DNA from: a bacterium
GTDB lineage: Bacteria; Patescibacteriota; Minisyncoccia; Phycocordibacterales; UBA2100
Assembly (NCBI GenBank): GCA_030647655.1
Contig: JAUSJH010000021.1
Coordinates: forward strand, 1 to 51,901
Reading direction: 5' to 3'
DNA length: 51,901 nucleotides
The notes below the pieces were generated by a model. The model saw only the letters and a program-made list of their open reading frames with translations. It was not told the origin of the DNA and made no database searches. How positions within the stretch are numbered: position 1 is the first letter of the stretch; each line of letters begins with the position of its first letter. Shown piece after piece: positions 5,921 to 38,350 of the stretch. The position numbers were made by a program, and so were the translations under genes.

Positions 5921-6026
5921 GTATACCCCGTGAGATAAGAGAATCTTGGGTTATCCACTTGCTCGGATGTGTGTAACTTTTTGTATGTTGGCATCAAAAT
6001 CGGCAGGACTATCTCATGGGGTATAC
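5921..6026. repeat. MITE-like inverted-repeat element, copy 1
   Basis: GTATACCCCGTGAGATA (5921-5937), 72-bp spacer, TATCTCATGGGGTATAC (6010-6026). Confidence 0.8.
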
Positions 6027-6050
6027 CCCGTGTATTGCTATACTGGATCA

Positions 6051-6710
6051 ATGCAATCGAGGCTTGTGGGTAACGTGCAACTTGTCGCCGGGGACGCCAA
6101 TCTCATTCCAGAGGTACTCGCGCTTCTCAAAGACAATGGTATGAAAGTAGAGGGTAATCCTGATGTGTATGTGCGCGAGTATAAGTACTTCAGTGTCGAC
6201 GACGCGCGCGAGCTACGCGAGCGCGCATCGCTCCGGCCTTTGGGCGAGCGGCGTGTTTTCATAATAGCGGCGCCGGACATGAACCACAACGCACAGAACG
6301 CGCTTTTGAAAATCCTTGAAGAGCCATCGGCGAACGCCCTTTTCTTCTTTATCGTTCCGGCGCCGCACGCACTTCTCGCGACACTCCGCTCGCGCGCCCA
6401 GATGCTCACGCTGGGCGCACATGCAGGCCCGTATTCAATGATTGATACAAAAGAATTTCTGTCGGCGACGCCCCACAAACGACTTGAGATGTTGAAGCCA
6501 CTCCTTGAAAAAGATGAGGATGAAAAGCGCGACCTTGGTGCCATCCTCGCATTCCTTTCATCGCTTGAGCAGACACTCGCCCATTCGACTAACTCAGGGC
6601 AAGCAAAAAAACCAGAGGGACTTCATGCCGTTTATAGGGCGCGGAAGTATATGGGGGATAAAGGGGCGCTCGTTAAACCACTGCTTGAGCAAATTGCTTT
6701 ACTGATATAA
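6051..6710 (+). CDS. holB: DNA polymerase III delta-prime-like subunit (short form)
   Basis: SVDDAREL...AQNALLKILEEP...LLATLRSR clamp-loader motifs. Confidence 0.8.
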   Translation: MQSRLVGNVQLVAGDANLIPEVLALLKDNGMKVEGNPDVYVREYKYFSVDDARELRERASLRPLGERRVFIIAAPDMNHNAQNALLKILEEPSANALFFFIVPAPHALLATLRSRAQMLTLGAHAGPYSMIDTKEFLSATPHKRLEMLKPLLEKDEDEKRDLGAILAFLSSLEQTLAHSTNSGQAKKPEGLHAVYRARKYMGDKGALVKPLLEQIALLI

Positions 6711-6738
6711 TCGTTTCGCTGGGCTATAATACCCCAAT

Positions 6739-7293
6739 ATGGCAAACTACGACTTCAAGATATTCGACACCAAGATTGCTGATGCGCGGGAATGGCTCGC
6801 GCGTGAGTATCGCGGCTTCCGTACGGGGCGCGCGGCTCCTGCCATTCTCGAAGGGGTGTCCGTCTCTGCGTACGGCTCGATGACACCCTTGAAACAAGTG
6901 GCGAATGTCGGTGTCGAAGACGCGCGGACACTGCGTGTGAGCGCCTACGACGCTGGGCTTATCAAAGATATAGAGAAAGCTATTTCCTCGGCAAATCTTG
7001 GCGTAGGCACGTCCTCCGACGGTGCGAATGTCCGCGTCACATTTCCCGAGCTCACATCCGAGCGCAGAGAACAACTCGTGAAGCTCGCCAAAGGCAAATT
7101 GGAAGAAGCGCGTACGACCGTGCGCATCGCTCGCGATGAAGCATGGAAAGAAATACAGACGCGCGAGAAAGAGGGCACGCTGACCGAAGACGACAAGTTC
7201 GCTCTCAAAGAAGAGTTGCAAAAGAAAGTGGATAAGGCAAATGAGGAATTGGAAAGTGCGTTCGAGAGTAAGGAGAAAGAGATGAGTGCGTAA
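6739..7293 (+). CDS. frr: Ribosome recycling factor
   Basis: FRTGRAAP, YGSMTPLKQVA and PELTSERREQLVK motifs. Confidence 0.96.
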   Translation: MANYDFKIFDTKIADAREWLAREYRGFRTGRAAPAILEGVSVSAYGSMTPLKQVANVGVEDARTLRVSAYDAGLIKDIEKAISSANLGVGTSSDGANVRVTFPELTSERREQLVKLAKGKLEEARTTVRIARDEAWKEIQTREKEGTLTEDDKFALKEELQKKVDKANEELESAFESKEKEMSA

Positions 7294-7295
7294 GT

Positions 7296-12263: not shown

Positions 12264-12362
12264 CCCCGTGAGATAAAAAATCTGTCTTTTACCGGTGATC
12301 CCGCATTATTCGGAGAGTTGTATATTGCGCAAACTTTGGGACCGATTATCTCATGGGGTATA
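12264..12362. repeat. MITE-like inverted-repeat element, copy 2
   Basis: CCCCGTGAGATAA (12264-12276), 69-bp spacer, TTATCTCATGGGGTATA (12346-12362). Confidence 0.75.
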
Positions 12363-12370
12363 GTGCACGC

Positions 12371-14110
12371 ATGAGCTCGTGGTTTAAAACACGTCGCGTG
12401 CACGAGATAGCGCCTGACGAGATATTTCTCGACTCTTCCAATTTGCCGGCGCACGAAGCGAGCCAATTCGAAGGTCGCGTCATCTCTGCACTCCCGCGCA
12501 GGAGTGTCTTCGCGGTCGGGATAGTGTTTGCAATTGTCGGGCTCGCATTTATGATGCGCGCTTTCAGTCTTGAAGTGACACATGGCCCCTCGTATGCCGA
12601 TGTATCGCGGGAAAACACACTGGAGCGCTCCATTATTTTCACGACGCGCGGATTATTGTTGGACAGAAATGGAAAAGAGTTGGCGTGGAATGAGGCCCCA
12701 TTGGAAAGCTCCGCTTCCAACGGGGCAGGCGCTACCAGTTCGACATTTTCACTTAGAAAATACACCCGACTCTCCGGTCTCGCGCACATTCTCGGCTTCG
12801 TGCAATACCCGAAGGCCGACGCGAAAGGCAATTGGTGGCGCGAGGAAACGACCGGTATGTCAGGTGGCGAGCTTGCATATGACACGATGCTCAAGGGCGC
12901 AAACGGCAGTCGCATGGTGGAAAGAGATGCTCGCGGCGAGATACAGCGCGAGGATTTAATGGCTCCACCGGAAAACGGGCGCGATCTCACACTCTCAATA
13001 GATGCGCAGGTGCAAAGCGAGCTCTACCGGCTTCTTTCCGCTCATGCCGCGAATCTGGGTTTTAAGGGCGGAGCCGCCGTTATCATGGATGTGCAAACCG
13101 GGGAAATCCTCGCGCTCACCAGTTTTCCCGAATATGACAATCAGGCAATAACAGACGGCATCTCATCGATTGTGCGCGCCGCAAATACGGACCCGCGAAC
13201 ACCACTTTTGAATCGCGCCGTAAGCGGGCTATATGTACCCGGCTCTATCGTTAAGCCTATCTTTGCCGCCGCCGCGCTGAATGAAGGGATTATCACGCCC
13301 GAAAAGCAAATCTTGTCGACAGGCTTCATTTCCATTCCAAATCCGTATGACGCGGCGCATCCCTCCATCTTTCGCGACTGGACGGTGCACGGCCTCGTCG
13401 ATATGAGAGTGGCGCTTGCGGTCTCGTCGGACGAATATTTTTATACCATCGGAGGAGGATACGAGGGGCAAAGGGGTCTTGAGATCGCAAAACTCGATGA
13501 GTACGCCCGAAAATTCGGGCTTGCGCAACCGACCGGCATCGCGCTCTTTGGTGAGGCAGTCGGCGTTATTCCGACTCCGGAGTGGAAAACGCAGATGTTT
13601 GGACCGAATGATCCGTGGCGCATTGGCGACACGTACCACACGGCAATCGGTCAGTACGGTTTCCAGATAACACCTCTTCAGGCGGTGCGCTACATAGCGG
13701 CGATTGCGAACGGCGGCAAACTCTTGACGCCGCAACTCATTGCTCGCCCCGCCGTCGGCGGGGCAGGTTCAACACCAGAATGGGTCTCTGTCGGCATTCC
13801 AGACCAACACCTGCAGGTGGTGCGTGAAGGTATGCGACTCGCTGTTACATCCGATAGGAAAGATGCGACGGTGAAATTTCTCAATATTCCGCAGATCCAT
13901 ATCGCCGCAAAAACGGGGACCGCGCAACTCGGCATGCGGAACGAGGCGGTGAATTCATGGTCGGTCGGCTTTTGGCCCGCAGAAAATCCGCACTGGGCCT
14001 ACGCGGTCGTTTTGGAACGCGCGCCCGCGGGCACACCCTCCGGCGCCGCACAGGGGCTCCAGCCGTTCTTCCAATGGCTAGTCGCAAACCATCCTGAGTA
14101 TGTCGATTGA
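12371..14110 (+). CDS. mrdA: Penicillin-binding protein 2 (class B transpeptidase)
   Basis: PGSIVKP (SxxK), SSDEYFY and KTGTAQ motifs; start placed 6 nt after TATAGT. Confidence 0.9.
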   Translation: MSSWFKTRRVHEIAPDEIFLDSSNLPAHEASQFEGRVISALPRRSVFAVGIVFAIVGLAFMMRAFSLEVTHGPSYADVSRENTLERSIIFTTRGLLLDRNGKELAWNEAPLESSASNGAGATSSTFSLRKYTRLSGLAHILGFVQYPKADAKGNWWREETTGMSGGELAYDTMLKGANGSRMVERDARGEIQREDLMAPPENGRDLTLSIDAQVQSELYRLLSAHAANLGFKGGAAVIMDVQTGEILALTSFPEYDNQAITDGISSIVRAANTDPRTPLLNRAVSGLYVPGSIVKPIFAAAALNEGIITPEKQILSTGFISIPNPYDAAHPSIFRDWTVHGLVDMRVALAVSSDEYFYTIGGGYEGQRGLEIAKLDEYARKFGLAQPTGIALFGEAVGVIPTPEWKTQMFGPNDPWRIGDTYHTAIGQYGFQITPLQAVRYIAAIANGGKLLTPQLIARPAVGGAGSTPEWVSVGIPDQHLQVVREGMRLAVTSDRKDATVKFLNIPQIHIAAKTGTAQLGMRNEAVNSWSVGFWPAENPHWAYAVVLERAPAGTPSGAAQGLQPFFQWLVANHPEYVD

Positions 14111-21900: not shown

Positions 21901-21966
21901 TATACCCCATGAGATATTTGCCTGTACATTGTTACAAAGTTTAACTTCTTTATCTCACGGGGTATA
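21901..21966. repeat. MITE-like inverted-repeat element, copy 3
   Basis: TATACCCCATGAGATA, 34-bp spacer, TATCTCACGGGGTATA. Confidence 0.8.
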
Positions 21967-25917: not shown

Positions 25918-25921
25918 GACA

Positions 25922-27508
25922 TCAACCCCACTCGATAGTCGCAGGCGGCTTGTCGGAAATGCGATAGACAATGGCACCCACTTCGCGCACCTCGTTGGTG
26001 ATACGGCGGGAGACGCGATCGAGAAAGTCGTAGGGAAGCTGTGCAAAACGCGCCGTGAAGCCATTCACACTCCAAACAGCCCATAGAGCGACCACAGCGC
26101 CTTGGCCGGCATCATCGCCCTTGGAGACGGTGTGTTTTGAGTGTGTGAGCGTAGCTCCTGCTTGCCAGACTGTTTTATATAGGTCAGTGACACGCAATTC
26201 TTCTATATAAATGCCGTCTATGGCACGGGCGATTTTGAGGTTCTCTGCAGTTACTTCGCCTTCAATTCGCACTACCAAGCCAGGGCCGGGGAAGGGGTGA
26301 CGCACCAAAAGGTCCTCGGGAACGCCGATATCTCGGCCGATGTTGCGAGCGGAATCTTTGACCTGGTCTTCAAGTGGAATAAGTTCTGGAACGGAAAATC
26401 CGAGCTTTACGTTGTGGTGCACTTTTATCTCCGCGACGCGCGCGCCGGTTGCGTGCCCATGTCCGCTTTCACGTATATCGGTATAGAGCGTACCCTGTGC
26501 GATAAAGTCAGCGCCGAAGTCTTTTATTTTCTCCTCCAGCACTTTTTTGTATACGTCGCGCACCGCAAGCCGTTTCTCGCGCATGTCGGTCTTGCCTTTG
26601 AGTGCTTTCAAGAAGTCTTTTGTGGCGTCGGCAATCTCGAGCTCCATCCAGTTCTCGTTACCGAAATACTTTTTCACATACGCTTCGTCATCTGGTCGGT
26701 CAATACCACGGATATAAATCCCCTTAAGTTTGGCGCCCGCTTCTTTCAGAAGATATGCGACGACCGAGGAATCCGAACCTCCGGAGAGAGCGATAAGCAC
26801 TTTCTTGCCGCTGGCGACCTTCTTCAACTCTTGGATTTTCTCCTGCGCTACATTGTGCGCAGGGAAACGGTCGGTAATGCCGCAGAGATTTACAAAATTC
26901 TCATATATTTTGGGGCCTTCTTCGGTGTCCGTCACTTCCGGATGAAATTGCACACCCCAGAGATGTTTATATCTTCCCGCCGCGACAGGCGCATTATCCG
27001 TCGAGCCGAGATTTTCGAGTGCAGAGCCTTCTTCGACAGAGTCTCCGTGCGTCTCAAGCACCTTACTCTCTCTCGCGATTCCTTCAAAGAGTGGATCATT
27101 GCCAGTCGTTTTGAAAGTATGTATGCCGAATTCACGCTTCTCGTGTGGGGTGACTTTTGCACCGACATGCTTTGCCCACATCTGGAATCCGAGACATACG
27201 CCAAGAGTGGGAATACCGAGGTCGAAAATATTCACGTCGAACGGTGGCGGTTCACTGTGTACAGAGGCGGGGCCGCCAGAAAGAATGATGCCGGCAGGCG
27301 CAACCTTTTTCACATCCGCCGCCTTTACACTCGCTGGGTCCGCAACGACACAAAAGACCCCGAGCCTAGCTAACTGCTGCACGATTAGATGGTCGAATTG
27401 TGAGCCCATTGAGAAGAGGAGAATGAAATGCTTTGTTTGTCGCACGTGCATCTCTTCATCTATCCCTTCAAGCGCTTCTTTCGAGGCTGTTTTGAAGATC
27501 TTCAACAT
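25922..27508 (-). CDS. guaA: GMP synthase (glutamine-hydrolysing)
   Basis: ILSGGP, GVCLGFQ, QFHPE, SGGSDS, HPFPGPGL and KPPATIEW motifs. Confidence 0.96.
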   Translation of the reverse strand: MLKIFKTASKEALEGIDEEMHVRQTKHFILLFSMGSQFDHLIVQQLARLGVFCVVADPASVKAADVKKVAPAGIILSGGPASVHSEPPPFDVNIFDLGIPTLGVCLGFQMWAKHVGAKVTPHEKREFGIHTFKTTGNDPLFEGIARESKVLETHGDSVEEGSALENLGSTDNAPVAAGRYKHLWGVQFHPEVTDTEEGPKIYENFVNLCGITDRFPAHNVAQEKIQELKKVASGKKVLIALSGGSDSSVVAYLLKEAGAKLKGIYIRGIDRPDDEAYVKKYFGNENWMELEIADATKDFLKALKGKTDMREKRLAVRDVYKKVLEEKIKDFGADFIAQGTLYTDIRESGHGHATGARVAEIKVHHNVKLGFSVPELIPLEDQVKDSARNIGRDIGVPEDLLVRHPFPGPGLVVRIEGEVTAENLKIARAIDGIYIEELRVTDLYKTVWQAGATLTHSKHTVSKGDDAGQGAVVALWAVWSVNGFTARFAQLPYDFLDRVSRRITNEVREVGAIVYRISDKPPATIEWG

Positions 27509-27589
27509 GTTTCCGCCATCGTACCACGTAGGGGAGCCAATCTCCTAAACGGATGAGGATTCCATGAAGGTGTGGATAACTGGCTTGCG

Positions 27590-27635
27590 GTGGGGTATAG
27601 TGGTATATACTCTATGACAGTGGGAAAAAGTGGGA
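27590..27635 (+). promoter_or_regulatory. MraZ operator-like GTGGG repeats with 10-bp periodicity
   Basis: GTGGG 27590, GTGGT 27600, GTGGG 27620, GTGGG 27630 upstream of mraZ; matches the known MraZ box pattern. Confidence 0.75.
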
Positions 27636-27652
27636 AACAGACACTTCATGCT

Positions 27653-28087
27653 ATGTTCATCGGCGAATACGAGCACAATCTCGACGAGAAAAATCGAATA
27701 TCACTGCCGAAGGCTTTCAGATCGGCGTTCGGTAAAAGATTCGTCATGACGCGAGGGCTCGACAATTGCCTCTTTGCATATCCGCGAGCGAGTTGGGAGA
27801 AGGTCGCAGCAAGGCTGCAAGAACTTTCTTTCGCCCAAGCGGATACGCGCGGCTTCAACCGATTCATGCTCTCAGGAGCCACAGAAGTGGAAGTGGATGG
27901 CGCGGGAAGAATTCTCATTCCCGAACATCAACGAAGCTTTGCTGGCTTGAGGAAACGCGTGGTCTTCGCAGGGGTTTCGGACCGTATAGAGGTCTGGGAC
28001 GCCGAACGGTGGACAAGCTACAAAGCAAAGATCGAGAAGGACGCAGAGAGGATGGCCGAGAAATTGGGCGAGATCGGCGCACTCTAA
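27653..28087 (+). CDS. mraZ: Division/cell wall cluster regulator MraZ
   Basis: MFIGEYEHNLDEKNRISLP and DGAGRILIP motifs. Confidence 0.96.
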   Translation: MFIGEYEHNLDEKNRISLPKAFRSAFGKRFVMTRGLDNCLFAYPRASWEKVAARLQELSFAQADTRGFNRFMLSGATEVEVDGAGRILIPEHQRSFAGLRKRVVFAGVSDRIEVWDAERWTSYKAKIEKDAERMAEKLGEIGAL

Positions 28088-28126
28088 TTTCGTAATGCCA
28101 GACCACTGGAAGACCTTTTAAACGTC

Positions 28127-29056
28127 ATGCGCACGCGACGCCCACAGTCTTCCAGTGATCCGGTGTTGGGAACACAGCACCGACCCGTTCTTTTACACGA
28201 AGCAGTCGAATTCCTAGCTTTGAAACCAGACGACACGGTTGTTGATGCGACACTCGGAGAGGCAGGGCATGCACTCGCCAGTATAGGGGAACTTGGCGAG
28301 CACGGAATATTTGTCGGATTCGATCTCGATTCCGATGCAATCGAGCGAGCCAGAGAAATGCTCAAAGGTGCTGCACCCGAAGTCCATATCGTCGAGGCGA
28401 ATTTTCGCGCTCTCGCTCGCGAACTTTCAACGCGAGGAATATCGCGGGTCGACAAAGTTTTGTTCGACCTTGGGTGGAGCTCCCGCCAGCTCAACTCCGG
28501 AAGAGGATTCTCGTTGAAGGGTGATGAACCGCTCCTCATGACGTACTCCAAGGGCGTGACAGCGCTCACAGCGGCAACCATCGTAAACAAATGGTCCGAG
28601 GAGTCGCTAGCTGATGTCATCTTCGGATGGGGAGAGGAGCGATACTCGCGACGAATCGCAAAAGCTATTGTCGAGCATCGTTTCGAAAAGCCGTTCACAA
28701 CAGCGCGAGAACTTGCGGAAGCAATCTATGCGGCAGTGCCTCCGAGATACCGCCACGGTCGTATACATCCCGCCACGCGAACGTTCCAAGCACTTCGTAT
28801 TGCGGTCAACGACGAGCTAGGGGCGCTTCGAGAAGGTCTCGCAAATGCATGGAAAGTTCTTTCGAAAGACGGGAGGATAGCCGTCATAACCTTCCACTCG
28901 ATAGAAGATAGGCTGGTGAAGCAAACTTTCAAACTATGGGAGGACAGTGGTGAAGGGAAGCGACTGACAAAAAAGCCTTTGACTCCGAGCGCCGAAGAGA
29001 TTAGAGACAATCCTCGGTCTCGTAGTGCAAAACTTCGTGTGATCGAAAAACTATAA
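28127..29056 (+). CDS. rsmH: 16S rRNA m4C1402 methyltransferase
   Basis: HRPVLL, DATLGEAGH, DLGWSS, FQALRIAVNDEL and NPRSRSAKLR motifs. Confidence 0.96.
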   Translation: MRTRRPQSSSDPVLGTQHRPVLLHEAVEFLALKPDDTVVDATLGEAGHALASIGELGEHGIFVGFDLDSDAIERAREMLKGAAPEVHIVEANFRALARELSTRGISRVDKVLFDLGWSSRQLNSGRGFSLKGDEPLLMTYSKGVTALTAATIVNKWSEESLADVIFGWGEERYSRRIAKAIVEHRFEKPFTTARELAEAIYAAVPPRYRHGRIHPATRTFQALRIAVNDELGALREGLANAWKVLSKDGRIAVITFHSIEDRLVKQTFKLWEDSGEGKRLTKKPLTPSAEEIRDNPRSRSAKLRVIEKL

Positions 29057-29063
29057 AGAAAGT

Positions 29064-29465
29064 ATGAGAGCCCGTATACATAAAATAAGCAGACACGTCC
29101 CCTCGATATTTCAGGGGAGGTTGGATTTTAATACTACACAGCACCGTATTTCGCTCTCTATTGAGCACCCCGCGGAGCTACTCGCGCTCCGCGTGCTCGC
29201 CATCGCACTCATCGCACTCGTTTGCGGCTATCTTTATTTCGTTTCTGCGTCTGTCCTCAACGTGATGTCGCGCAAAGAAGCACTTACTCGTACTGCTCTT
29301 ATACAGGGAAGTATAGGTGGATTGGAACAAGAATATTTCAAATTGTCACAAAGCGTCAAACCGAATTCAGGTGCGGCTTTGGGGCTTTCTCCTGTTTCGC
29401 AGACGCAATACGTATATCGACCCGGTAATGTTGGAGCTGTTACAATTGTTCGCAATGAAATCTAG
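29064..29465 (+). CDS. Probable FtsL-like cell division protein
   Basis: Single TM plus short coiled coil between rsmH and ftsI; start uncertain. Confidence 0.6.
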   Translation: MRARIHKISRHVPSIFQGRLDFNTTQHRISLSIEHPAELLALRVLAIALIALVCGYLYFVSASVLNVMSRKEALTRTALIQGSIGGLEQEYFKLSQSVKPNSGAALGLSPVSQTQYVYRPGNVGAVTIVRNEI

Positions 29466-29477
29466 CCGCGAGACCCT

Positions 29478-31184
29478 ATGAGGTCCCGTTTTATTTTCCG
29501 CACAAGGGTTTTGTGCGGACTGTTTATCATCGTGGCGCTATTTCTCATCGTGCGTTTGTATGTTGTGCAGATCGTGCGCGGCGCAGGGTATCAGAGAGAC
29601 GCGACGGCACAATATGTGGCACCAAATCCTGATACGGGAAGCCGCGGCAGTATTCTTTTCCGCGCGAAGAACGATGAGCTCGTTTCGGCAGCTATCATGC
29701 AAACGGGCTGGCGTATCGCGATAAAGCCCGAAGATATAAATGAGCCAGAAAGCGTGTACGAAAAGTTGAACGCGCTTACCCCAATCGATCGTGAGCGTTT
29801 TTTCGTGAATGCAGCGAAAAAAGACGACCCGTATGAAGAGGTCGCTTTTCGTGTGGCCGACGATGTCGGACCTAAAATTCGCGCGCAGAAGATTCCCGGC
29901 GTAATACTCGTGCAGGATCAGTGGCGCTTCTATCCGGCGGGTACCCTCGCGGCACAAACAGTCGGGTTCGTTGGCTTCCGAGGAGCGACCAAAGCGGGGG
30001 TCTATGGGCTCGAGAATGAATGGGAGGAAACCCTCTCGCAAAAGAGAAGTGACCGCTATGTGAATCCGTTTGCGGAGATATTTATGAACATCGAAGCTGT
30101 GGCATCGAACGATCCCTCTGCGCATGAAGGTTCTATCGTGACTTCCATCGAGCCGTCTGTGGAGCAGCAACTTGAAACGACACTCGAGGCTGTGATGAAG
30201 ACATACTCGCCTCGCCTCGCGGGCGGTGTCATCATGGACCCGCATACAGGAGAAATAATCGCCATCGCAGCACATCCCACATTTGATCCCAACGCGTACA
30301 GTATTGTCGAAGACCCGGCTGTATTTTCGAATCCGCTCGTCGAAAATATCTATGAAATGGGTTCCATCATGAAGCCGCTTACGATGGCTGTGGGTATCGA
30401 CAGGGAAGTCGTCACGCCTTCGACCACGTACGACGACACGGGTTGCATCGAGAAAAGCGGCAAAAAGATATGCAATTACGACGGCAAAGCGCGCGGCGTC
30501 GTTTCTATGCAGGAAGTCTTGAATCAGTCATTGAATACCGGCGCGTCGTTCGTCGTGGACAAAATCGGGCACACCATCTTTGGCACCTATGTGAAAGCGC
30601 TCGAGCTCGGGAAAAAGACCGGCGTCGACCTGCCGAACGAAGCGACGGGGCGTATTCAACCAATAGAAAATGGATACGATGTGGATTACGCGAGCGCCTC
30701 CTTCGGACAGGGAATATCTGTTTCTCCGATTGCGATGACGCGCGCGCTTTCGGCACTTGCAAATGGCGGGGTCCTGCCAAGCCCGCACGTCGTAACCGCT
30801 ATCAAATATCAAAGCGGCATTACCCGCACTATCAAACCAGAGGAAGGACCGCGTGTTTTCAGTGCGACATCGACGGATACGGTAACGCGCATGCTCGTAA
30901 CCGTTTTCGACAAGGCGCTCTTGGGCGGAGTACTGAAACAAGAGCATTATTCCATCGCGGCGAAAACGGGCACCGCACAAATCGCGGTTTCCGGCGGGTA
31001 CTCTCCTGATCGCTTCCTCCACTCATTTTTCGGATACTTTCCGGCACACGACCCGAAGTTCATCGTTTTCCTTTTCGCGGTCGAGCCGCACGGCGCCGAA
31101 TTTGCCTCTGCGACGCTCGCACGACCCTTCCTCGAGATTGCGAAGTTCCTCATCAACTACTACAACATCCCACCGGATAGATAA
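29478..31184 (+). CDS. ftsI: Class B penicillin-binding protein (FtsI/PBP3)
   Basis: YEMGSIMKP, SLNTG and KTGTAQ motifs; dcw context. Confidence 0.9.
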   Translation: MRSRFIFRTRVLCGLFIIVALFLIVRLYVVQIVRGAGYQRDATAQYVAPNPDTGSRGSILFRAKNDELVSAAIMQTGWRIAIKPEDINEPESVYEKLNALTPIDRERFFVNAAKKDDPYEEVAFRVADDVGPKIRAQKIPGVILVQDQWRFYPAGTLAAQTVGFVGFRGATKAGVYGLENEWEETLSQKRSDRYVNPFAEIFMNIEAVASNDPSAHEGSIVTSIEPSVEQQLETTLEAVMKTYSPRLAGGVIMDPHTGEIIAIAAHPTFDPNAYSIVEDPAVFSNPLVENIYEMGSIMKPLTMAVGIDREVVTPSTTYDDTGCIEKSGKKICNYDGKARGVVSMQEVLNQSLNTGASFVVDKIGHTIFGTYVKALELGKKTGVDLPNEATGRIQPIENGYDVDYASASFGQGISVSPIAMTRALSALANGGVLPSPHVVTAIKYQSGITRTIKPEEGPRVFSATSTDTVTRMLVTVFDKALLGGVLKQEHYSIAAKTGTAQIAVSGGYSPDRFLHSFFGYFPAHDPKFIVFLFAVEPHGAEFASATLARPFLEIAKFLINYYNIPPDR

Positions 31185-31189
31185 ATAGT

Positions 31190-31528
31190 ATGCAATGCAA
31201 GACATGTAAAGTAATCTCGCGTTTTTCCGGCAAGAAATTCCTCATGCCGCTCCTCGGTCATCGGTATTCGATAATTACTCTCGAGGCAGTGCGAGTGCAC
31301 GTGAGCGACCTCGATCTTGAGATAGGGGGAGGATTGGAAACCCGCGGGTGGACCTCCAATGATATAGATGTGAACGGCACTCGGGCCGATGTGTCGGTGT
31401 TTGCGAAGCGGCTCAAACAAAACGGGATAGAGCATCCGGTCCATTACTGTGGTCCGCATACAGGGCACTCACACGTTCTCTGTGCATTAAATGGCATCAA
31501 GCTGGCGCTCACGGGGAGAGGGTACTAG
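31190..31528 (+). CDS. Hypothetical protein
   Basis: ORF exactly fills the gap between ftsI and the next gene; CxxC at N-terminus; no recognised family. Confidence 0.5.
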   Translation: MQCKTCKVISRFSGKKFLMPLLGHRYSIITLEAVRVHVSDLDLEIGGGLETRGWTSNDIDVNGTRADVSVFAKRLKQNGIEHPVHYCGPHTGHSHVLCALNGIKLALTGRGY

Positions 31529-31533
31529 TTGAT

Positions 31534-32226
31534 ATGCCAACAGATTACACCTACGCGTACACTCTGCTCGTTTGCTTCTTCACGCTTGTATGGGTAATTT
31601 TATTTATTATACGTAAGGATCTCCGGCGAGAAATGTTCATCATGTCTCTCCTCGCGGCCCCGCTCGGGCCTTTCGGTGATTTTTTCTATCAGCGCGATTA
31701 CTATCTACTTCCCATCCTGAACGGACATTACTGGTGGATATATTCTCTCGCGTGCGGTTTCGTCTATGGCGGTGTAGCGGCGGTGCTCTATGAGACGCTC
31801 TTGAAAGAACATCACCGTATCCAGCGGGGTATCCGTAAAAAACAGGGGAGGCATTATTGGTGGTTTTGGGCCGTCTTTTTAGGCGGCGGTGCCTTCATGT
31901 ATGTGGGCACATTCTTACTGCAGATAAACTCGATTTATGTTTCTTTTTGCGTGATGTTTTTGGGGGCTTTATGGATCGGCTATCAGAGGAAAGATTTGTT
32001 GGTCGAGGCTGTCGGAAGCGGACTTGCTCTCATGGCAGTAACGACAGTTTTCTACCTTGTGCTCCAACTCGTATTTCCCGGGATATTTGAGACTCAATGG
32101 AACATCGCAAGTCTCTCGGGCCTGTTTATTCTCGGGATTCCGGTAGAGGAATACGTATGGGCCTTTATGTGGGGTCTTATCACAGGACCCGCGTATGAGT
32201 ACGTAATGGCTATAAAGATGCGATAA
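31534..32226 (+). CDS. Lycopene-cyclase-domain-like membrane protein
   Basis: Two repeated halves RKDL..E; C-terminal ILGIPVEEYVW motif. Confidence 0.65.
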   Translation: MPTDYTYAYTLLVCFFTLVWVILFIIRKDLRREMFIMSLLAAPLGPFGDFFYQRDYYLLPILNGHYWWIYSLACGFVYGGVAAVLYETLLKEHHRIQRGIRKKQGRHYWWFWAVFLGGGAFMYVGTFLLQINSIYVSFCVMFLGALWIGYQRKDLLVEAVGSGLALMAVTTVFYLVLQLVFPGIFETQWNIASLSGLFILGIPVEEYVWAFMWGLITGPAYEYVMAIKMR

Positions 32227-32271
32227 ACACTTCCGTTTTGTCTTAATTTGAAATACAATCGCCCAGTGTGC

Positions 32272-32343
32272 GGCTCCATCGTCTAACGGTTAGGACGGAA
32301 GCTTCTCAAGCTTCAAATCGGGGTTCGATTCCCCGTGGAGTCA
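32272..32343 (+). tRNA. tRNA-Glu(CTC)
   Basis: GGCTCCA/TGGAGTC acceptor; GAAGC-TTCTCAA-GCTTC anticodon arm. Confidence 0.92.
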
Positions 32344-32484
32344 AAATTTTGGCGCAGCCGAATATTTGGCCCTACAGCGAAGTGATACACTTCGCGTGGG
32401 GAATTGAACCGCGGGCCGCAGGGCTCGAAGAGAGCCCGAAGGTTTCGAGCGTGCCAACGCGAGAGGCGATTCCCCGTGGAGTCA
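32344..32484 (+). repeat. 141-bp tRNA-3'-associated element, copy B
   Basis: 54-nt spacer, antisense T-arm (32398-32410), 56-nt core (32411-32466), 18-bp duplicate of tRNA 3' end (32467-32484). Confidence 0.85.
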
Positions 32485-33013
32485 CAATGTAGAATTTCGG
32501 CAGGAGTGAGCGAAAAACTCCCGCGCGCATAAGCTCAAACGCTCCCAACAAGGAAGCGGTGTAAACGATGTCGCCCGTGAGCATATTGCGTAGAAATGGA
32601 ATACCGAGTTCGTACGAATACAAAAGACCGAAAATACTCTTTTCGTACCACGGCGAGAAAAGCCACACCGCGGCATTTGTAATAAGGAAGAAAAATAGTG
32701 ATGACGCAATGACCGAAAGAAAGACAGGGAGAACTCCGCTATATTTCCTACTCATCCAGCTCCAGCATCCGATGAGGGCAAAAGAGCCGTACACGCTCGC
32801 CATGATTTTCCAATCATAAAAACCGATGAACATATCTGACAAGAACAGCGCACAGAGAGGAAGAAGCATAGACCATCGCTTGCCGAGATAGATGCTGCCC
32901 GCGAAAGCAATCGCGGTTATAGGCGTCGCGTTGGGGAGATGCGGCAGTAAACGTACCATGATGCCAAAGCAAACGAGCGCACCCGCCGCGAGCAAGATGT
33001 GGTTGCGCCGCAT
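32372..33013 (-). CDS. DUF6580-like membrane protein, putative ECF-type S component
   Basis: RLLPHLPNATPITAIA...LFLSDMFIGFY...FFFLITNAAVW...GIPFLRNML.GD; C-terminus reads through the tRNA-associated element. Confidence 0.75.
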   Translation of the reverse strand: MRRNHILLAAGALVCFGIMVRLLPHLPNATPITAIAFAGSIYLGKRWSMLLPLCALFLSDMFIGFYDWKIMASVYGSFALIGCWSWMSRKYSGVLPVFLSVIASSLFFFLITNAAVWLFSPWYEKSIFGLLYSYELGIPFLRNMLTGDIVYTASLLGAFELMRAGVFRSLLPKFYIVTPRGIASRVGTLETFGLSSSPAARGSIPHAKCITSL

Positions 33014-33016
33014 AGG

Positions 33017-33451
33017 CTAGAATGTAGATTCGCCAAAGTACCACTCGACGGAATCACCACCCTTCAAAACGTACGCATCCGCACCAATTTGAGGCATAAC
33101 CCCGTTCACTTTGTACTGCCAATATTTCTTATCAGTACCATTTTTATTCCCATGCATCCCGTCAACCAACGTGCCCAGTCCCGAATACTCTTTCGTAGAA
33201 AGCTGAAGCTGTGAATCTCCTGTATTCATTGTCTGCAGTATTCCAAGCACCGTGGCGTTCTCTGATATTGGCACGGATTTGTTCGTATACAGACCCTCAA
33301 TCGTGATAGATACGGTACCTGTCTGCGTAACTTCCTGCCGCGCAGAGCTAGCCGGTGATGTTGTTTTGCCCGTGTATGCAAATAATCCCGCGACAAAAGC
33401 GAGGAGCAACAATCCAATTCCTATTATCTGCCAAGTTCGTTTTGAGCTCAT
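33017..33451 (-). CDS. DUF4430 domain protein (transcobalamin C-terminal-like), membrane anchored
   Basis: GLGTLVDGM...YWQYKVNGVMPQIGADAYVLKGGDSVEW. Confidence 0.8.
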   Translation of the reverse strand: MSSKRTWQIIGIGLLLLAFVAGLFAYTGKTTSPASSARQEVTQTGTVSITIEGLYTNKSVPISENATVLGILQTMNTGDSQLQLSTKEYSGLGTLVDGMHGNKNGTDKKYWQYKVNGVMPQIGADAYVLKGGDSVEWYFGESTF

Positions 33452-33518
33452 ATCGTCCGTATCTGATTACGAATATAACGGTGGTGTTCCATCGTCTCCA
33501 TTCCTCATGTATAGCATA

Positions 33519-35861
33519 TTACGACGAGGAAACCGCTTCGCCTGAAGGCACCGCGACATCAATGTCACAGACGCCGCCAACACACGCGAGTTCTTTTCTC
33601 TGCTCGGTTTCGTCTGAGTGTTCATAGGTGACAAGTTTGCTGTAATCGATGCGTGGGAAACTTGCAGCGAGTTCCTCATATCTTTTTTTGTCTATTGTCT
33701 CGTATGGTGCGAGACGATATACATGGTCAAAGCGCGGCAGGAAAGATAGCCCGCCGATTATATCCCAGTTTTTTTGTATCCAATCTACGACACCAATCCA
33801 CTCATCCTCGCCGACCGAAATAGTCGCGGAAGGATTATGCTCCGTGTAATTGAGCTTCACAATTTTCCAATATTCCAACTGTTCAATGGAAGTCACATCG
33901 TCTTTGAACACTTCGCTATCAGGTGCCTCTACGGGAAATTCCAAGACGTAGGTACTTGCACTACCATCCGATTGACCGACTTCCGGATGATGCGGGACAC
34001 CTTGGTCCTTGAGCATCTGGAAAAGCGAGTCGGTTGCAGAGATGCGCACTCTACGGATATAGTATTTCGCGTGACGCGGATGAATACCCGAGGAGCAGTT
34101 GAATGTTTGAGAGACGGTTCCGGAAGGTTTGACCGCCGTGACGGACATCGAAGGTTTGATGCCGAAACGTTTTGCATACGATGCATTGGCTTTGATCGCT
34201 TCATCACGCATAGCGCGTAGAGTTTCCGGTTTACGTGCTTCCGCGCTGTCCCACTGGCCTGTGACTGATACGCCGAGCAGTCTCTCTTCCTCGCAGTGTT
34301 TTTTCCATGCTTTCGAAATATAGCGGAAATTGGTGAGCATCGATTGGTATGTACCCAAAAGCGCGGCGAGCCGCGCCTTGCGCACAAGAGTCTCGTGCGT
34401 GTCCTCCGCGCGAGCGATAACCTCGGAAAGGTTGCAGAATTGCTTGGATTGCAAGATAATCTCGCCGCACGGGTTTGTCCCTATAGGGCCTTGCACAACG
34501 CCATCTTCATCAATAAAACCGGCTCTTTTGAAGTATTTAGCGCGTCGTTTTGGGAGAGAGTTCCGTAGTGCGCCGCGATTAAAAATGCCGCGCTCACCCG
34601 AACCGCTCTTCATAAGCGCCGCCCACTCTTCTATGAGTTCCGTATTGGAAGGCTTCGCCTCATACACTGCCGAATTGTTGGCTACAGAACGATGCGGCTC
34701 GGTGAGGAAGAATTGCCCTTTCTTTGCATCGCGTAATTCGGCGTCATCAAGATCGGAGAGGCTGATCATGGCTGTGCGACGCACGCCACCCGAGACAACG
34801 CATTCGCCGATCTTACAAATGATGTCGTGCACATCAATGCTCCGGAGCCGCCTTCCTTGCCGCCGCAATATTTTTTCGCGAGCGAACGCGAGAAGCGAAC
34901 GCAGTGGTTCCGGACCTGATGCCTTACCACCCATAGTCTTGAGCCGCGCGCCGGCGGGACGGATGAGAGAAAAATCAAATTCAATATCATAACCCTTGTA
35001 CCAAGTTTGAAGTCCGAGTGTTAGCGCATCACACCAACCTTCTTTTGAATCCTTTATGACATGTGTCGGCGACTTCTTCTTTGTCTGTTTTTTGATCTGA
35101 GGCAGTTGTTCTATATTTTGGCTCTCGACAGCAAATCCCACGCCGCATCCCTGCATTGAAAGATACATAATCTCGGCAAGATCTCCGATCTTTGTCGGAG
35201 CAATGAATGAGCAGTTGTATGCACAGGTATTGCATCTGCGTGCAGGCTCTCCGGCAAACTGCATCAGCCGCATCGAAGGCATCACTTCCTGCCGTAGGAT
35301 CGCATCACGTAGCTCGGAATATTCTTCCGCGGCGAGTTTGTCGCCCACGTTCTCTTTCATGAACTCCATATAACGATCGACAGTTTCTATCCACGTCTCA
35401 CGTCTGTTTTCTCCTACCTTCCAACGCGCATAGGTCCTCAAGTAAACAAATTCGCCGAGCAGATTACCTTCGAAATATTTCTTGCTCTCCTCGGCAAGCG
35501 CGCGGATGTGTTCCGGAACGTCTCCCCGCATTTCCCGAATGCGAGTGCGCTCGGCTCGATAGAGAATGTAGGCTTTGGCTGTTGCGGGAAATTTGTGCAA
35601 CATCAATTCTGCCTCAACCATGTCTTGCACGCCTTCGACCGTTGGGACAAACGAAGTGTCCGACTGTTTTTGTGCAAGCAATTTATTGGAAATAGTATCA
35701 GCTATTTTTTCCGCGGCACCGTCTTTAAATTCATCGGACGCTCGCATTGCCTTTTTTACTGCAAGGATGATTTTATTTGCGTCAAAAGGAACGACAGAAC
35801 CACCCCGCTTTCTTATTGCGAATAGTTGTGTCGGGCCGTTGACGACGTGACTACTTTTCAT
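33519..35861 (-). CDS. nrdJ: Class II (adenosylcobalamin-dependent) ribonucleotide reductase with N-terminal ATP cone
   Basis: IRKRGGSVVPFDANKI ATP cone; YNC, SGPEPL, GGVRR, TNPCGEI, VKPSGT; C-terminal CVGGVC. Confidence 0.9.
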   Translation of the reverse strand: MKSSHVVNGPTQLFAIRKRGGSVVPFDANKIILAVKKAMRASDEFKDGAAEKIADTISNKLLAQKQSDTSFVPTVEGVQDMVEAELMLHKFPATAKAYILYRAERTRIREMRGDVPEHIRALAEESKKYFEGNLLGEFVYLRTYARWKVGENRRETWIETVDRYMEFMKENVGDKLAAEEYSELRDAILRQEVMPSMRLMQFAGEPARRCNTCAYNCSFIAPTKIGDLAEIMYLSMQGCGVGFAVESQNIEQLPQIKKQTKKKSPTHVIKDSKEGWCDALTLGLQTWYKGYDIEFDFSLIRPAGARLKTMGGKASGPEPLRSLLAFAREKILRRQGRRLRSIDVHDIICKIGECVVSGGVRRTAMISLSDLDDAELRDAKKGQFFLTEPHRSVANNSAVYEAKPSNTELIEEWAALMKSGSGERGIFNRGALRNSLPKRRAKYFKRAGFIDEDGVVQGPIGTNPCGEIILQSKQFCNLSEVIARAEDTHETLVRKARLAALLGTYQSMLTNFRYISKAWKKHCEEERLLGVSVTGQWDSAEARKPETLRAMRDEAIKANASYAKRFGIKPSMSVTAVKPSGTVSQTFNCSSGIHPRHAKYYIRRVRISATDSLFQMLKDQGVPHHPEVGQSDGSASTYVLEFPVEAPDSEVFKDDVTSIEQLEYWKIVKLNYTEHNPSATISVGEDEWIGVVDWIQKNWDIIGGLSFLPRFDHVYRLAPYETIDKKRYEELAASFPRIDYSKLVTYEHSDETEQRKELACVGGVCDIDVAVPSGEAVSSS

Positions 35862-36053
35862 GGCATACGAGCGTTAGATTAATAATGGTCAATAGATTAT
35901 AGTATAGATGAATGTCTGGAAGTATAGAAAAACTGGGGAAAAGCGGCCGTCTCGGGTTCCACGCACAGTTTCCTGCGAAGAAAGGCCTTATACCAAGCGT
36001 TTTAATTGGAATATAAGAGAGTACTGTCCGAATAGGCCGTGTACAATGCATGA

Positions 36054-36521
36054 ATGCACTACCTACACACCATGGTACGGGTTGAAAACCTCGAACGGGC
36101 TTTGGATTTTTATTGCGGGAAGCTTGGGCTGGAGGAAGTTTACCGTCATAGCAACGAGAAGGGGAGATTTACAAACGTTTTCCTCAAAGCGCCCGGCGAT
36201 AGTGTCGGCGAGGCGCCAGCAGAGAAAAAGATGGGCATGAGCGGTTCCGTTGCACCTGTACTCGAACTCACGTACAACTGGGACGCGGAGAAATATGCGG
36301 GTGGGCGCAATTTTGGACACCTCGCGTACGCTGTGGAAAATATCTACGACTACTGCAAAAATTTGATGGAGAAAGGCATCATCATCAATCGTCCGCCGCG
36401 CGACGGGCGCATGGCTTTTATCCGCTCGCCGGATGGTATTTCAATCGAACTTTTGCAAATAGGCAACGCACTTGCGCCGCAGGAACCGTGGAAATCTATG
36501 CCGAGCACGGGCACTTGGTAG
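36054..36521 (+). CDS. gloA: Lactoylglutathione lyase (glyoxalase I, VOC family)
   Basis: [22 protein letters not shown] and [12 protein letters not shown] motifs. Confidence 0.93.
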
Positions 36522-36551
36522 AAAAAGCCCAATGGCGTAGAGTCTCTGTGT

Positions 36552-37325
36552 ATGTACAAACGTATCGTTGTGAAAGTGGGGACAAAAGTCCTTTCGAAGA
36601 AGGATGGAAGCATTGATACCAAGATCGTCCGACACGTCGTCGAACAGATTTCCGCGTTAAAGAAAAAAGGAATACAGGTTATTTTAGTAACTTCCGGTGC
36701 GGTGGGCACGGGAAGAGCTCTTCTTTCAGCCAAGGATAGCGGATACGTTCCGCAAAAGCAGATGTTTGCGGCAGTAGGGCAGGTGAAGCTTATGAGTATG
36801 TATGCTGAGCTTTTTGTAAAACGTGGGTATCTGTGCGCGCAGGTGTTGGCGACCAAAGAAGATTTTCGCGACCGCGAGCATTATGTGAATATGAAGAATT
36901 GTTTTGAGAAATTGTTGCACGAGAGTGTCGTGCCGATCGTCAACGAAAATGACGTGGTTGCGATTGCCGAACTTGTTTTTACCGATAACGACGAGCTCGT
37001 CGGACTCGTCGCGGCGCAGTTGCATGTCGACGCGGTGATTATCCTCACTGGCGTTGACGGGGTTTTGGCCGATGGCCGGACGGTCGCTCTTGTCAATTCT
37101 AAGAACGCCGCGGGTGTAAGAAAATATATTACTGCGGAAAAATCTACCGGCGGACGCGGAGGAATGCACACCAAATTCAATGTTGCGCTCAAGCTAGCGA
37201 AGCGAGGAATTACCACCTACATCGTGAATGGAAAGAAACGAAACGTACTTGTTGATGTTGTAGCTGGGAAACGTCTCGGTACAAAGTTCTTTCCGCGCAG
37301 TAAAGCCATACAGCGTAAACGATGA
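36552..37325 (+). CDS. proB: Glutamate 5-kinase without PUA domain
   Basis: IVVKVGT, VTSGAV, AAVGQ, PIVNEND, DNDEL and GRGGMHTK motifs. Confidence 0.92.
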   Translation: MYKRIVVKVGTKVLSKKDGSIDTKIVRHVVEQISALKKKGIQVILVTSGAVGTGRALLSAKDSGYVPQKQMFAAVGQVKLMSMYAELFVKRGYLCAQVLATKEDFRDREHYVNMKNCFEKLLHESVVPIVNENDVVAIAELVFTDNDELVGLVAAQLHVDAVIILTGVDGVLADGRTVALVNSKNAAGVRKYITAEKSTGGRGGMHTKFNVALKLAKRGITTYIVNGKKRNVLVDVVAGKRLGTKFFPRSKAIQRKR

Positions 37326-37337
37326 TATCCTACAGCC

Positions 37338-38276
37338 ATGTCCCACATACTCGTTTCCGGCTCTATTGCATATGACAGAATCATGGATTTCCCCGGGCTG
37401 TTCAAAGAGCACTTTGTTGCAGACATGCTGCACAGCATCAATGTCAGTTTCGCCGTGCAGGGATTCACTGAGAACTTCGGCGGGACGGCGGGGAACATTG
37501 CCTACAATCTCGCCGTTTTGGGGCAAACACCGCGCATCATCGCGACAGCCGGCTCGGATTTCGAGCGCTACGCAGGCCACCTACGCTCGGTCAAAGTTGA
37601 TCCGACGTCGGTGAAGATTGATACTCAGGGCTCCACTTCGTCCGCGTTCATCATTACCGACAGAGCGAACAACCAGATAGCCGCGTTCTCTATGGCGGCT
37701 GGTGGCACGGAATATCTTCCACTTCCCGATACCGATGGTGTGCGCACTGCTATCGTCGGCGCGGGTTGTGTGCAAGATATGGAAAACTTGCCTGCATACT
37801 ACCGCGCGCAGGGCATAGAATACTTTTACGATCCCGGCCAGCAGATACCCGCGCTATCGAGAGAACAGCTTCGCGATGGCATCACGGGTGCTAGAGGATT
37901 ATTTGCAAATGACTATGAGTTGAGCCTCATAACGAAAAAAACAGGATTGGACGAGGCCGGATTACTCCAAAAGGTGCCGGCGCTCATTGTGACGTTGGGA
38001 GAGAAGGGCTCACGCGTCGTCACAAAGGAAGGTGAGGCGAGCATAAAAGCAGTTCCTGTAACTAAGGTGGTGGATCCTACGGGCGCAGGAGATGCATATC
38101 GCGCCGGATTCATTGCAGGATTTCTCAGCCAACAGCCTCTCGAGAGGGCTGCCAAAATCGGAAGTGCGGCCGCTGCGTATGCTGTCGAGAAATATGGGAC
38201 GCAAAGCCACCGATTCACAATTGCAGAATTGGGGGAGCGTTACAAAGCCGCATACGGCGAGACACTTTCGCTCTAG
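37338..38276 (+). CDS. PfkB-family kinase (adenosine/nucleoside kinase-like)
   Basis: SGSIAYD, GGTAGNIAY, DPGQQ and DPTGAGDAYRAG motifs; adjacent to ahcY. Confidence 0.88.
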   Translation: MSHILVSGSIAYDRIMDFPGLFKEHFVADMLHSINVSFAVQGFTENFGGTAGNIAYNLAVLGQTPRIIATAGSDFERYAGHLRSVKVDPTSVKIDTQGSTSSAFIITDRANNQIAAFSMAAGGTEYLPLPDTDGVRTAIVGAGCVQDMENLPAYYRAQGIEYFYDPGQQIPALSREQLRDGITGARGLFANDYELSLITKKTGLDEAGLLQKVPALIVTLGEKGSRVVTKEGEASIKAVPVTKVVDPTGAGDAYRAGFIAGFLSQQPLERAAKIGSAAAAYAVEKYGTQSHRFTIAELGERYKAAYGETLSL

Positions 38277-38280
38277 CGCT

Positions 38281-38350
38281 GTATACCCCGTGAGATAAAA
38301 TATTTTAAAATCGTGTAGCGGGTAGTATTTGGTTATCTCACGGGGTATAC
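38281..38350. repeat. MITE-like inverted-repeat element, copy 4
   Basis: GTATACCCCGTGAGATAA, 34-bp spacer, TTATCTCACGGGGTATAC (perfect 18-bp inverted repeat). Confidence 0.82.

Follow-up and report, generated by a model that had tools for sequence, protein, structure and literature searches.

The stretch of DNA analysed here (the window) is a contig of 51,901 nucleotides (JAUSJH010000021.1) from an ultra-small groundwater bacterium of the Patescibacteria, whose genome (assembly GCA_030647655.1) comprises 904,636 bp in 21 contigs. We refer to this genome as G000 and to the window as its contig C9; other G and L numbers designate compared genomes and loci, G017 being the sister species. The window carries four gene-less insertions, all built as a 12-nt arm (CCCCRTGAGATA), an interior and the same arm in inverted orientation (Table 1). 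The arm has eight exact matches in the window, all belonging to these four inverted pairs, against a chance expectation of about 0.012 for a 12-mer (51.9 kb, both strands, equal base frequencies). An earlier annotation made from the letters alone (the sequence-only reading) had described four paired copies, and they were found where it had placed them. Its spacers of 72 and 34 nt are right for copies 1 and 3; those of copies 2 and 4 are 71 and 36 nt instead of 69 and 34. It had also seen TATA on both outer sides of three copies, which is the case for copies 1, 3 and 4 (copy 2 has CCTG on the left and TATA on the right), and outer edges forming TATACT or TATAGT 6-9 nt before an ATG, which we measured at 6, 6 and 9 nt, plus 6 nt on the minus strand. 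Two of its details have to be dropped: a Pfam search gave no DUF1003 match for the leftward gene, which it had assigned to that family, and the sequence TATACCCCGTG at 6022-6032, taken for part of a third arm, belongs to the native spacer of the promoter and occurs in relatives without the element too. An Rfam scan of the window at gathering threshold gave seven tRNAs only, and no RNA family matching the elements; for positions 37800-39000 no RNA dataset with a match was listed. Contigs of four groundwater runs could be placed on positions 21500-39500, and one run, probably the source, covers copies 3 and 4 unchanged; contigs of related strains from these runs end at 38280 and 38286, and none among the matches listed bridges or skips the insertion.

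Table 1. Coordinates of the elements, the promoters that they adjoin and other features mentioned in the text (window positions unless a locus is named)
Feature	Position	Strand	Description
Copy 1, long class	5922..6025		TATA 5922-5925, arm 5926-5937, 72-nt interior, arm 6010-6021, TATA 6022-6025
Copy 2, long class	12264..12362		arm 12264-12275, 71-nt interior, arm 12347-12358, TATA 12359-12362; left flank CCTG, no TATA
Copy 3, middle class	21901..21966		TATA 21901-21904, arm 21905-21916, 34-nt interior, arm 21951-21962, TATA 21963-21966
Copy 4, middle class	38282..38349		TATA 38282-38285, arm 38286-38297, 36-nt interior, arm 38334-38345, TATA 38346-38349
Leaderless promoter of leftward 146-aa gene	5911..5925	-	-10 TATACT (5925-5920), 6 nt, ATG (5913-5911); box holds the left duplication copy
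holB-like gene promoter	6026..6053	+	native spacer CCCCGTGTATTGC, -10 TATACT (6039-6044), 6 nt, ATG 6051; Pfam DNA_pol3_delta2
Predicted mrdA-like promoter	12336..12373	+	-35-like TTGGGA 12336-12341, 17-nt spacer, -10 TATAGT 12359-12364, 6 nt, ATG 12371
FAD-linked oxidase promoter	21963-21968	+	TATACT 6 nt before ATG 21975; gene by Pfam
S-adenosylhomocysteine (AdoHcy) hydrolase (ahcY) promoter	38346-38351	+	TATACT 9 nt before ATG 38361; gene by Pfam
RAYT-like Y1 transposase gene	4732-5427	-	Pfam Y1_Tnp, 27 bits
RNase P RNA insertion, G020	L229 401-502		directly before GAGGAAAGUCCGG
RNase P RNA insertion, G009	L191 1479-1868		directly before GAGGAAAGUCCGG

The genome-wide motif scan and spacer histogram that the sequence-only reading had suggested gave 25 exact arms in G000 and, with up to two mismatches allowed, 15 inverted pairs whose interiors fall into discrete length classes (34-37 nt in nine pairs, 71-74 nt in five and 13 nt in one). 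Short elements of the family measure 42-110 bp. Both arms are exact in 11 of the 15 pairs and in all four of the window, and every pair lies between open reading frames (ORFs) or at ORF ends in a crude ORF map covering 93% of the genome. The interiors are poorer in G+C (40-42%) than the genome (~53%). No coding signal was detected in interiors of the family: an ORF spans 24 of 55 long-class interiors against 17.6 +/- 3.6 in shuffled sequences, and 26 of 45 middle-class ones, inside the shuffle range. Neither was there structure in excess of the shuffles (mean z-scores of 0.27 for the middle class and -0.10 for the long class). Comparison of the interiors of 123 elements found no similarity beyond re-fetched duplicate loci of G020, the tandem copies of one genome and a single marginal 16-nt match, and within the long class only 5 of 561 pairs scored above the shuffle maximum, two of these being orthologues. 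The description of the interiors as unrelated holds within the genome; between species it fails, as orthologous copies in G000 and a sister species can be recognised as homologues (at mrdA, 50 identities over 74 aligned positions).

A way to distinguish an insertion from a mere pair of repeats is to look at what lies immediately outside the arms. In sets of pairs found by their arms only, the outer 4-mers were identical in 12 of 15 pairs of G000 and 15 of 21 sampled in G020 (27 of 36 together). The sequence-only reading had argued that, TATA being a palindrome, a target duplication could not be told from a terminal repeat. Non-palindromic flanks and empty sites do separate them: all eight identical non-palindromic flanks of G000 and the G020 sample (TTCA, TTGA twice, TACA twice, TGTA twice and TCTA) are direct repeats, none inverted, and empty sites, which that reading had proposed as a check (with a single TATA), occur with one TATA or TGTA in relatives at the orthologous promoters of ahcY, the holB-like gene and six further loci. 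At ahcY the filled site of G000 reads cgctgTATA, element, TATACTggtggccaaATG (with more of the upstream sequence, ...ctctagcgctgTATA, element, TATACTggtggccaaATG) and the empty site of G017 reads tcttgTATACTgcgcgaaATG; the upstream region in the sister genomes with the same PfkB gene end is ...ctctagtcttgTATACTgcgcgaaATG in G017 and ...atctaggcgtgTATACTggccgggATG in G046. This clean single-TATA site is shared by G017, G046 and others, and the consensus element is found at ahcY in none of 27 other genomes, G016 having a short variant with changed arms. The holB-like gene (copy 1) lacks the element in G014, G016 and G021, where the site reads GTATACCCC(C/T)GCATTGCTATACT, and carries it in G017 with a diverged, homologous interior. 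No such element was found at the copy 3 promoter in G014, G016 and G017, and G046 has one lone arm upstream of it. The reverse case also exists, as six copies of G017 face single-copy sites in G000 (for example TGTA-element-TGTACT versus TGTACT). Altogether, occupancy differs at no fewer than eight sites between the lineages of G000 and G017 since their split. We have very little doubt that the copies were inserted into -10 boxes and duplicated 4 bp of target in doing so; this duplication is established for the Kaiserbacteria-like lineage only.

The sequence-only reading had left two interpretations side by side, a mobile element and a set of paired operator sites for one regulator. The first is backed by the direct 4-bp duplications, the empty sites and the long nuclease-bearing copy described below. 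Operator sites would be expected to abut -10 boxes, as the arms do, to be kept in place between species, as two of the window copies are in G017 with identical arms, and to have arms that do not vary independently, as is the case here (A/A at arm position 5 in 0 of 117). They are scarcely compatible with direct duplications and clean empty sites, nor with an arm number that goes from 0 to 71 among congeners and leaves only 9 of 229 leaderless promoters with an arm. Neither would they be expected between convergent genes, in an RNase P RNA gene or in tandem arrays, all places where copies are found elsewhere, or with a nuclease gene inside. Besides, G017 shares two of the four window loci and lacks the other two, and at least six of its copies are absent in G000. 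We regard operators as the least credible of the explanations considered.

The base that follows the flanking 4-mer is C at 125 of 202 half-sites, and the preferred target is therefore GTATAC. G000 has 188 such sites: 126 are inside ORFs (0 occupied), 45 lie unoccupied between ORFs or otherwise outside them, and 17 coincide with the junctions of elements. The terminal C and G of the arm form GTATAC again at both junctions, which fits the tandem arrays found in G009, where elements are separated by 4 bp. In G000, the distance from TAnAnT to ATG peaks at 6 nt (126 cases), followed by 65, 38 and 35 cases at 7-9 nt and 9-25 elsewhere. In 131 of 220 promoters the second base before the -10 box is G, and a weak TTG precedes the box by 21-23 nt. 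Roughly a quarter of the genes (~230) look leaderless by the pattern TGnTAnAnT 6-9 nt before ATG, the commonest -10 boxes being TATACT, TATAAT, TACAAT and TAGAAT. These data show that, outside genes, GTATAC is in these compact genomes mostly the -10 box (TATACT) of leaderless genes. The insertion shows a predicted -10 box in the same place, in which the right-hand TATA together with the downstream CT still lies 6-9 nt before the ATG, and the GGGG of the arm is shown to supply the G at what would be the extended -10 position of G000 promoters. Of 117 non-redundant elements from many genomes, 76 have, to one side or both, TAnAnT followed after 4-10 nt by a start codon with an open frame. The arm can be ruled out as a general promoter part, as 220 of 229 leaderless promoters of G000 lack it. 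An inward promoter TGAGATAAT within the arm was seen in L002 and does not apply to the family at large: in 54 of 86 copies A follows the arm, and the hexamer lacks a conserved final T. At the mrdA-like gene, probably starting at 12371, the -35-like TTGGGA lies inside the interior, 5 nt of interior plus the right arm make up the 17-nt spacer, and TTGGGAccgat in G000 is conserved as TTTGGAccgat in G017; by inference only, this promoter would be built from the element.

The same arms also enclose a gene. The sequence-only reading had pointed to a long copy with a transposase or cargo gene as something to look for, and one exists: a full-length form of 278-283 bp, whose only gene encodes a GIY-YIG nuclease of the Slx1/UPF0213 type (80-87 aa). 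In G020 (L002) the arms are 253 nt apart around an 80-aa ORF, and in L109 an arm pair surrounds an 86-aa ORF; their matches to Pfam GIY-YIG (PF01541) reach 54.6 and 61.3 bits, respectively (cut-off 22.6). Another pair of arms in G020 (L001, C4:86481-88810) is 2.3 kb apart and encloses ordinary-looking ORFs of 290 and 412 aa; we read it as two unrelated arms and not as one element, given these ORFs and the unequal flanks (TATA/TAGA). A metagenome search for arm pairs spaced 240-270 nt recovered at least 120 loci, of which 117 of the 120 listed have GIY-YIG homology and 106 an intact ORF of at least 77 aa (mode 87 aa). In 128 nuclease sequences with a median pairwise identity of only 57%, Y3/Y5, Y14-x-G16, R24 (100%), H28 (100%), E48 (97%) and R59-E60 are conserved, columns that are also invariant in A1; we presume that the conserved Tyr, Arg, His and Glu residues have catalytic roles. 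The fold model (mean predicted local distance difference test, pLDDT, of 88.1) has UPF0213 BH0048 and Slx1 as best structural matches, with I-TevI and UvrC lower; the matches 1zg2, 7cq2, 7wme and 6sei have template modelling (TM) scores of 0.58-0.69 on the query at 26-31% identity, all with Foldseek E-values above 0.001. By sequence the best matches are 1zg2 (E 0.005) and an Slx1 homologue (E 0.04). The resemblance to Slx1 and to UPF0213 (BH0048, EF2693) is thus closest in both sequence and fold; the predicted nuclease of the element differs from them in having 80-87 aa, no partner domain and a location within a 280-bp inverted-repeat element. Branched DNA is what Slx1 cleaves, and hairpin or cruciform ends of the element would suit such an activity.

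Genes for such mini-nucleases are widespread in the genus (34 of 40 congeners, seven genes in G000). Among 30 nuclease loci of the genus, CCCCRTGAGATA arms are found only at the two closest homologues (G020 and G009), and most of the 30 genes are bracketed by inverted repeats of their own that start with CCC(C) and span 275-300 bp, with flanks such as TGAA/TGAA, TATG/TATG or TACA/TACA. Nuclease clades agree with arm families, with 11 label changes for a minimum of 10 (on average 20.8 after shuffling, and none of 200 shuffles reached so low a number), in a comparison that is partly circular because the arms of some families are translated and some rows are orthologues. The nuclease could still be a passenger, a homing-type endonuclease gene sitting in a hairpin element that is moved by another enzyme or by host replication and repair acting on hairpins. 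That G000 keeps 15 copies without a cognate nuclease would agree with this, and so would G020, which has the nuclease and no related copies among the 21 sampled. The presence of the nuclease inside 117 of the 120 listed full-size arm pairs and its correspondence with the arm families speak for a closer bond, and the tight bracketing leaves no space for another gene in most of the genus loci. Conventional transposases were rejected as movers, as G000 has no DDE_Tnp_1 or TnpB-type match and its two rve and four Y1 genes have unrelated ends. We find a passenger nuclease unlikely, and we lean, by a narrow preference drawn from these sequence associations, towards the nuclease as the mobilising enzyme.

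The Y1 genes deserve a separate comment. REPINs are inverted, hairpin-forming pairs of repetitive extragenic palindromic (REP) sequences with less conserved spacers, and the copies could be doublets of this kind, moved by the REP-associated tyrosine transposase (RAYT)-like Y1 enzymes (IS200-type) of G000. Four Y1_Tnp genes are present, one of them in the window 0.5 kb from copy 1. Each of the four is flanked by its own different short hairpin, such as CCAAGAGGcgtcaCCTCTTGG on both sides of the window gene, which has the hairpin CCAAGAGG-5 nt-CCTCTTGG at 4722 and 5448, a hairpin that the genome has nowhere else. Within 300 nt of the four genes there is no CCCCRTGAGATA-like arm. Nor is a single arm a palindrome, and Y1 transposition is not known to make a target duplication, present here with its 4 bp. 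A REPIN-like origin is, on this evidence, highly improbable.

Other nuclease-bearing families, and hairpin elements related to them, were observed at other types of site. The full-length CCCGTTAGAGAT family (L196, L197, L199, L201, L202 and others) sits in ATGAA start codons with a TGAA duplication. Its nuclease ORF starts at the host gene's own ATG, with MNPVRD encoded by the arm, and ends in ...GGGA|TGAA, so that the TGA stop overlaps the rebuilt ATG of the host gene. In G000, one mini GIY-YIG gene (C20:130014-130310, arms GCCCCTCACATG) occupies the 5' end of a tRNA gene and has a copy of GGCCAGTA on either side. Also in C20 (79001-79369), a CCCCGTGAGATA element with a TACA duplication lies immediately before another such gene (79076-79369), whose TACACT box it provides; downstream of the gene there is no arm. 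The window itself contains a fifth hairpin element, of a sister family, at 436-564 (arms TCCCGTTAGAAGC 440-452 and GCTTCTAAACGGGA 547-560, TGGA flanks 436-439 and 561-564). It occupies the start codon of the gene at 560-928, whose old leaderless start was TAGAAT-6 nt-GTG at 423-437 and whose new ATG (560-562) consists of the last A of the arm plus the TG of the duplicated target.

A direct link between the two forms comes from the RNase P RNA gene: at its P3 position G009 carries a full-length element, and the copy that G020 has there contains an interior of 78 nt (RNaseP_bact_a scores of 97.9 and 48.5 bits at L229/L191, below the gathering score of 100). The G020 interior equals the G009 ORF minus the stretch between GCTT(C)GGGGC repeats (MYYVYVL|WGKGYLKLRIK..., z 16.5), and this short copy is, judging from the alignment, a microhomology deletion of the nuclease gene. 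In L191 a second element stands a few bases beyond the full copy, with co-varied arms CCCCGTGGGATA / TATCCCATGGGG. Such a deletion derivative accounts for the long class, and for that class only. As a general rule, the notion that interiors are relics of the nuclease gene was discarded: the relation is clear only for L003 (z 16.5), and z exceeds 2 in 10 of 101 interiors, a weak excess, most interiors being without any trace of the gene. In G009, which has the nuclease, there was a recent burst, one 73-nt interior being found at three loci as tandem dimers ~90% identical. By association, these data show the 278-283-bp nuclease-only element as the autonomous form, with the short copies derived from it by internal deletion. 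The four copies of the window are probably non-autonomous members, similar to miniature inverted-repeat transposable elements (MITEs), of a hairpin-ended mobile family of Kaiserbacteria-like Patescibacteria. With MITEs they have in common the terminal inverted repeats, the target duplication with empty sites, the small non-coding body and a longer enzyme-encoding element with the same ends.

The 12-mer is found in 30 of 40 congeners, with 0-71 arms per genome; elsewhere in the order, only 3 of 16 genomes of other families have it (1-3 arms each). A scan of one genome per species gave at least 123 loci, and most of the matches listed are records labelled Kaiserbacteria, Paceibacterota, Nomurabacteria, Parcubacteria or Saccharibacteria (third-party assemblies); scattered single matches in other phyla, among the matches listed, are as chance predicts for a 16-mer in 596 Gb. 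The 86 pairs among the matches listed have interiors of 6-14 nt (11), 33-39 nt (34), 61-80 nt (36) or other lengths (5), and short-class copies are near-perfect GC-rich hairpins.

Several observations weigh against a family that simply spreads by means of its nuclease. No recognisable interior is shared between copies within G000, G017 or G020, which is odd for copies of one another, and the internal sequence that copies of a MITE have in common was seen only in G009. None of the seven mini GIY-YIG genes of G000 carries CCCCRTGAGATA arms. Of the 120 listed full-length metagenome copies (L234-L353), 82 are flanked by an unvarying TTCA/TAAA, at loci that differ from one another. A number of these 82 lie inside tyrosine-recombinase genes, at the conserved motifs ...LLGH|... 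and ...DG|KG..., and in 73 of 87 listed the ORF continues across the 3' arm as far as the TAA of the flank, its stop codon; as far as these sequences tell, the outer 4 nt move together with the element in this lineage. The site comparisons indicate that the family inserts with a 4-bp T-N-N-A duplication or is lost precisely, and presence or absence cannot separate gain from loss. Moreover, interiors have diverged beyond recognition while arms stay identical. At the two orthologous loci (mrdA and the holB-like gene) the arms agree at 24/24 and 23/24 positions, versus 68% for the mrdA interior. At arm position 5, A/A is found in 0 of 117 elements where ~15 would be expected if the arms were independent (G/G 33, G/A 83, one with C). 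By sequence, the arms look selected locus by locus, which a purely selfish element would not predict. To our knowledge, GIY-YIG nucleases do not join DNA, and we know of no chemistry for the insertion step.

The conservation of the arms leads to the question of what the host may gain. G017 shares the copies at mrdA and at the holB-like gene, the former (copy 2) at the same site and with the same CCTG flank, and lacks the other two window copies; these two orthologous pairs rank first and third of the 561 long-class comparisons. Faster mutation of the loop was dismissed as the cause of the diverged interiors, given that orthologous interiors are 68% identical where the flanking proteins are 64-72% identical. 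Shared loci and differing occupancy together mean that the copies are long-lived, that turnover is real and that the arms are constrained. The shared copies favour some host-level constraint. Among the 117 listed full-length metagenome copies with GIY-YIG homology, 96 have G/G at position 5 and 21 are mixed. In the family, changes matched between the two arms are also seen (GAGAGA/TCTCTC, GAGAAA/TTTCTC, GTGGGATA/TATCCCAT). These patterns point to two arms that would be read jointly, as a hairpin or by a dimer. The elements might thus be mobile in origin and now kept by the host, with the hairpin acting as insulator, terminator, processing site or promoter part, an explanation that adds to the mobile family instead of replacing it. 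It would account for orthologous arms that remain identical while their interiors drift, for the matched arm changes, for the conserved -35-like box within the mrdA interior and for the GC-rich hairpins of the short class. It has to face the lack of a U-tract after the stem, loops of 34-74 nt devoid of structure of their own (the z-scores given above), unlike those of known terminators, and a G.T-compatible strand whose orientation, as we read it, does not track gene direction in G000 (3 agree, 3 disagree). We keep it as a possibility, somewhat on the doubtful side.

Among known systems, the Correia elements of Neisseria (CREE/NEMIS) are among the closest. They are short gene-less MITEs with terminal inverted repeats, a TA duplication and a DDE transposase as partner, and like the family described here they have many intergenic copies, create or rebuild promoters with their ends and fold as RNA or DNA into a long hairpin. 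In contrast to them, the duplication is here of 4 bp (TNNA, mostly TATA), the interiors are not conserved between copies and come in three length classes, and the putative autonomous partner encodes a GIY-YIG nuclease. REP sequences and REPINs also form inverted, hairpin-capable pairs whose spacer is less conserved than the arms and that persist vertically for long, and RAYT-like genes are present in G000; the target duplication, the non-palindromic arms and the different hairpins around the RAYT-like genes set our family apart. Integron attC sites likewise have conserved inverted ends around a centre whose sequence and length vary, fold as single strands and are asymmetric between strands; they differ in that the arms here have no GTTRRRY/RYYYAAC cores, the copies are dispersed and not in arrays, there is a 4-bp duplication and the long form has a nuclease gene inside. 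Literature searches covering main texts turned up no description of a bacterial inverted-repeat, target-duplicating element with a GIY-YIG gene, nor was a relevant passage met with in PMC1564403. GIY-YIG ORFs have been reported in rRNA-gene insertions of candidate phyla radiation (CPR) bacteria and were called outside the context of homing; the insertions fit neither the group I nor the group II intron type and are dispersed among sites of poor conservation (PMC11270868). Phylum, GIY-YIG ORF and location in a structural RNA gene (here RNase P RNA) coincide with our case, and the terms 'inverted repeat' and 'target site duplication' are absent from the main text of that paper; going by what it describes, those insertions may be the same thing as this family, unrecognised.

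How the family could move may be sketched as follows. The full-length element would be an autonomous transposon, whose Slx1-like nuclease would read the paired arms as a hairpin or cruciform and make a 4-nt staggered cut at T-N-N-A, a scheme that we consider plausible and hold only tentatively. The nuclease would recognise the arms, perhaps as a hairpin, and cut with a 4-nt stagger at the target and at the junctions, with host repair or ligation completing the cut-and-paste. The 15 copies of G000 would be relics or be moved by a paralogue, because no nuclease copy of this genome carries these arms. Insertions would persist only where they are harmless, and the rebuilt promoters would be seen because only such insertions survive. 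Sister families may each have evolved a harmless landing site of their own, the -10 box in one and the start codon, rebuilt with the last base of the element, in another.

Should the nuclease be what moves the element, its chemistry would be new for a transposase, belonging to none of the DDE, DEDD, HUH, serine, tyrosine and Cas1 classes, and the element, at ~280 bp, would be the smallest self-contained transposon known to us. For annotation, element ends are predicted to be part of the promoters of ahcY and of essential genes such as those for PBP2 (mrdA-like) and the holB-like protein. The conservation of the arms and the missing A/A state point to a further interaction. Genomes with ~93% coding sequence would tolerate an insertion only if the element restores the feature that it interrupts, which is the -10 box in this family and the start codon in its sister family.

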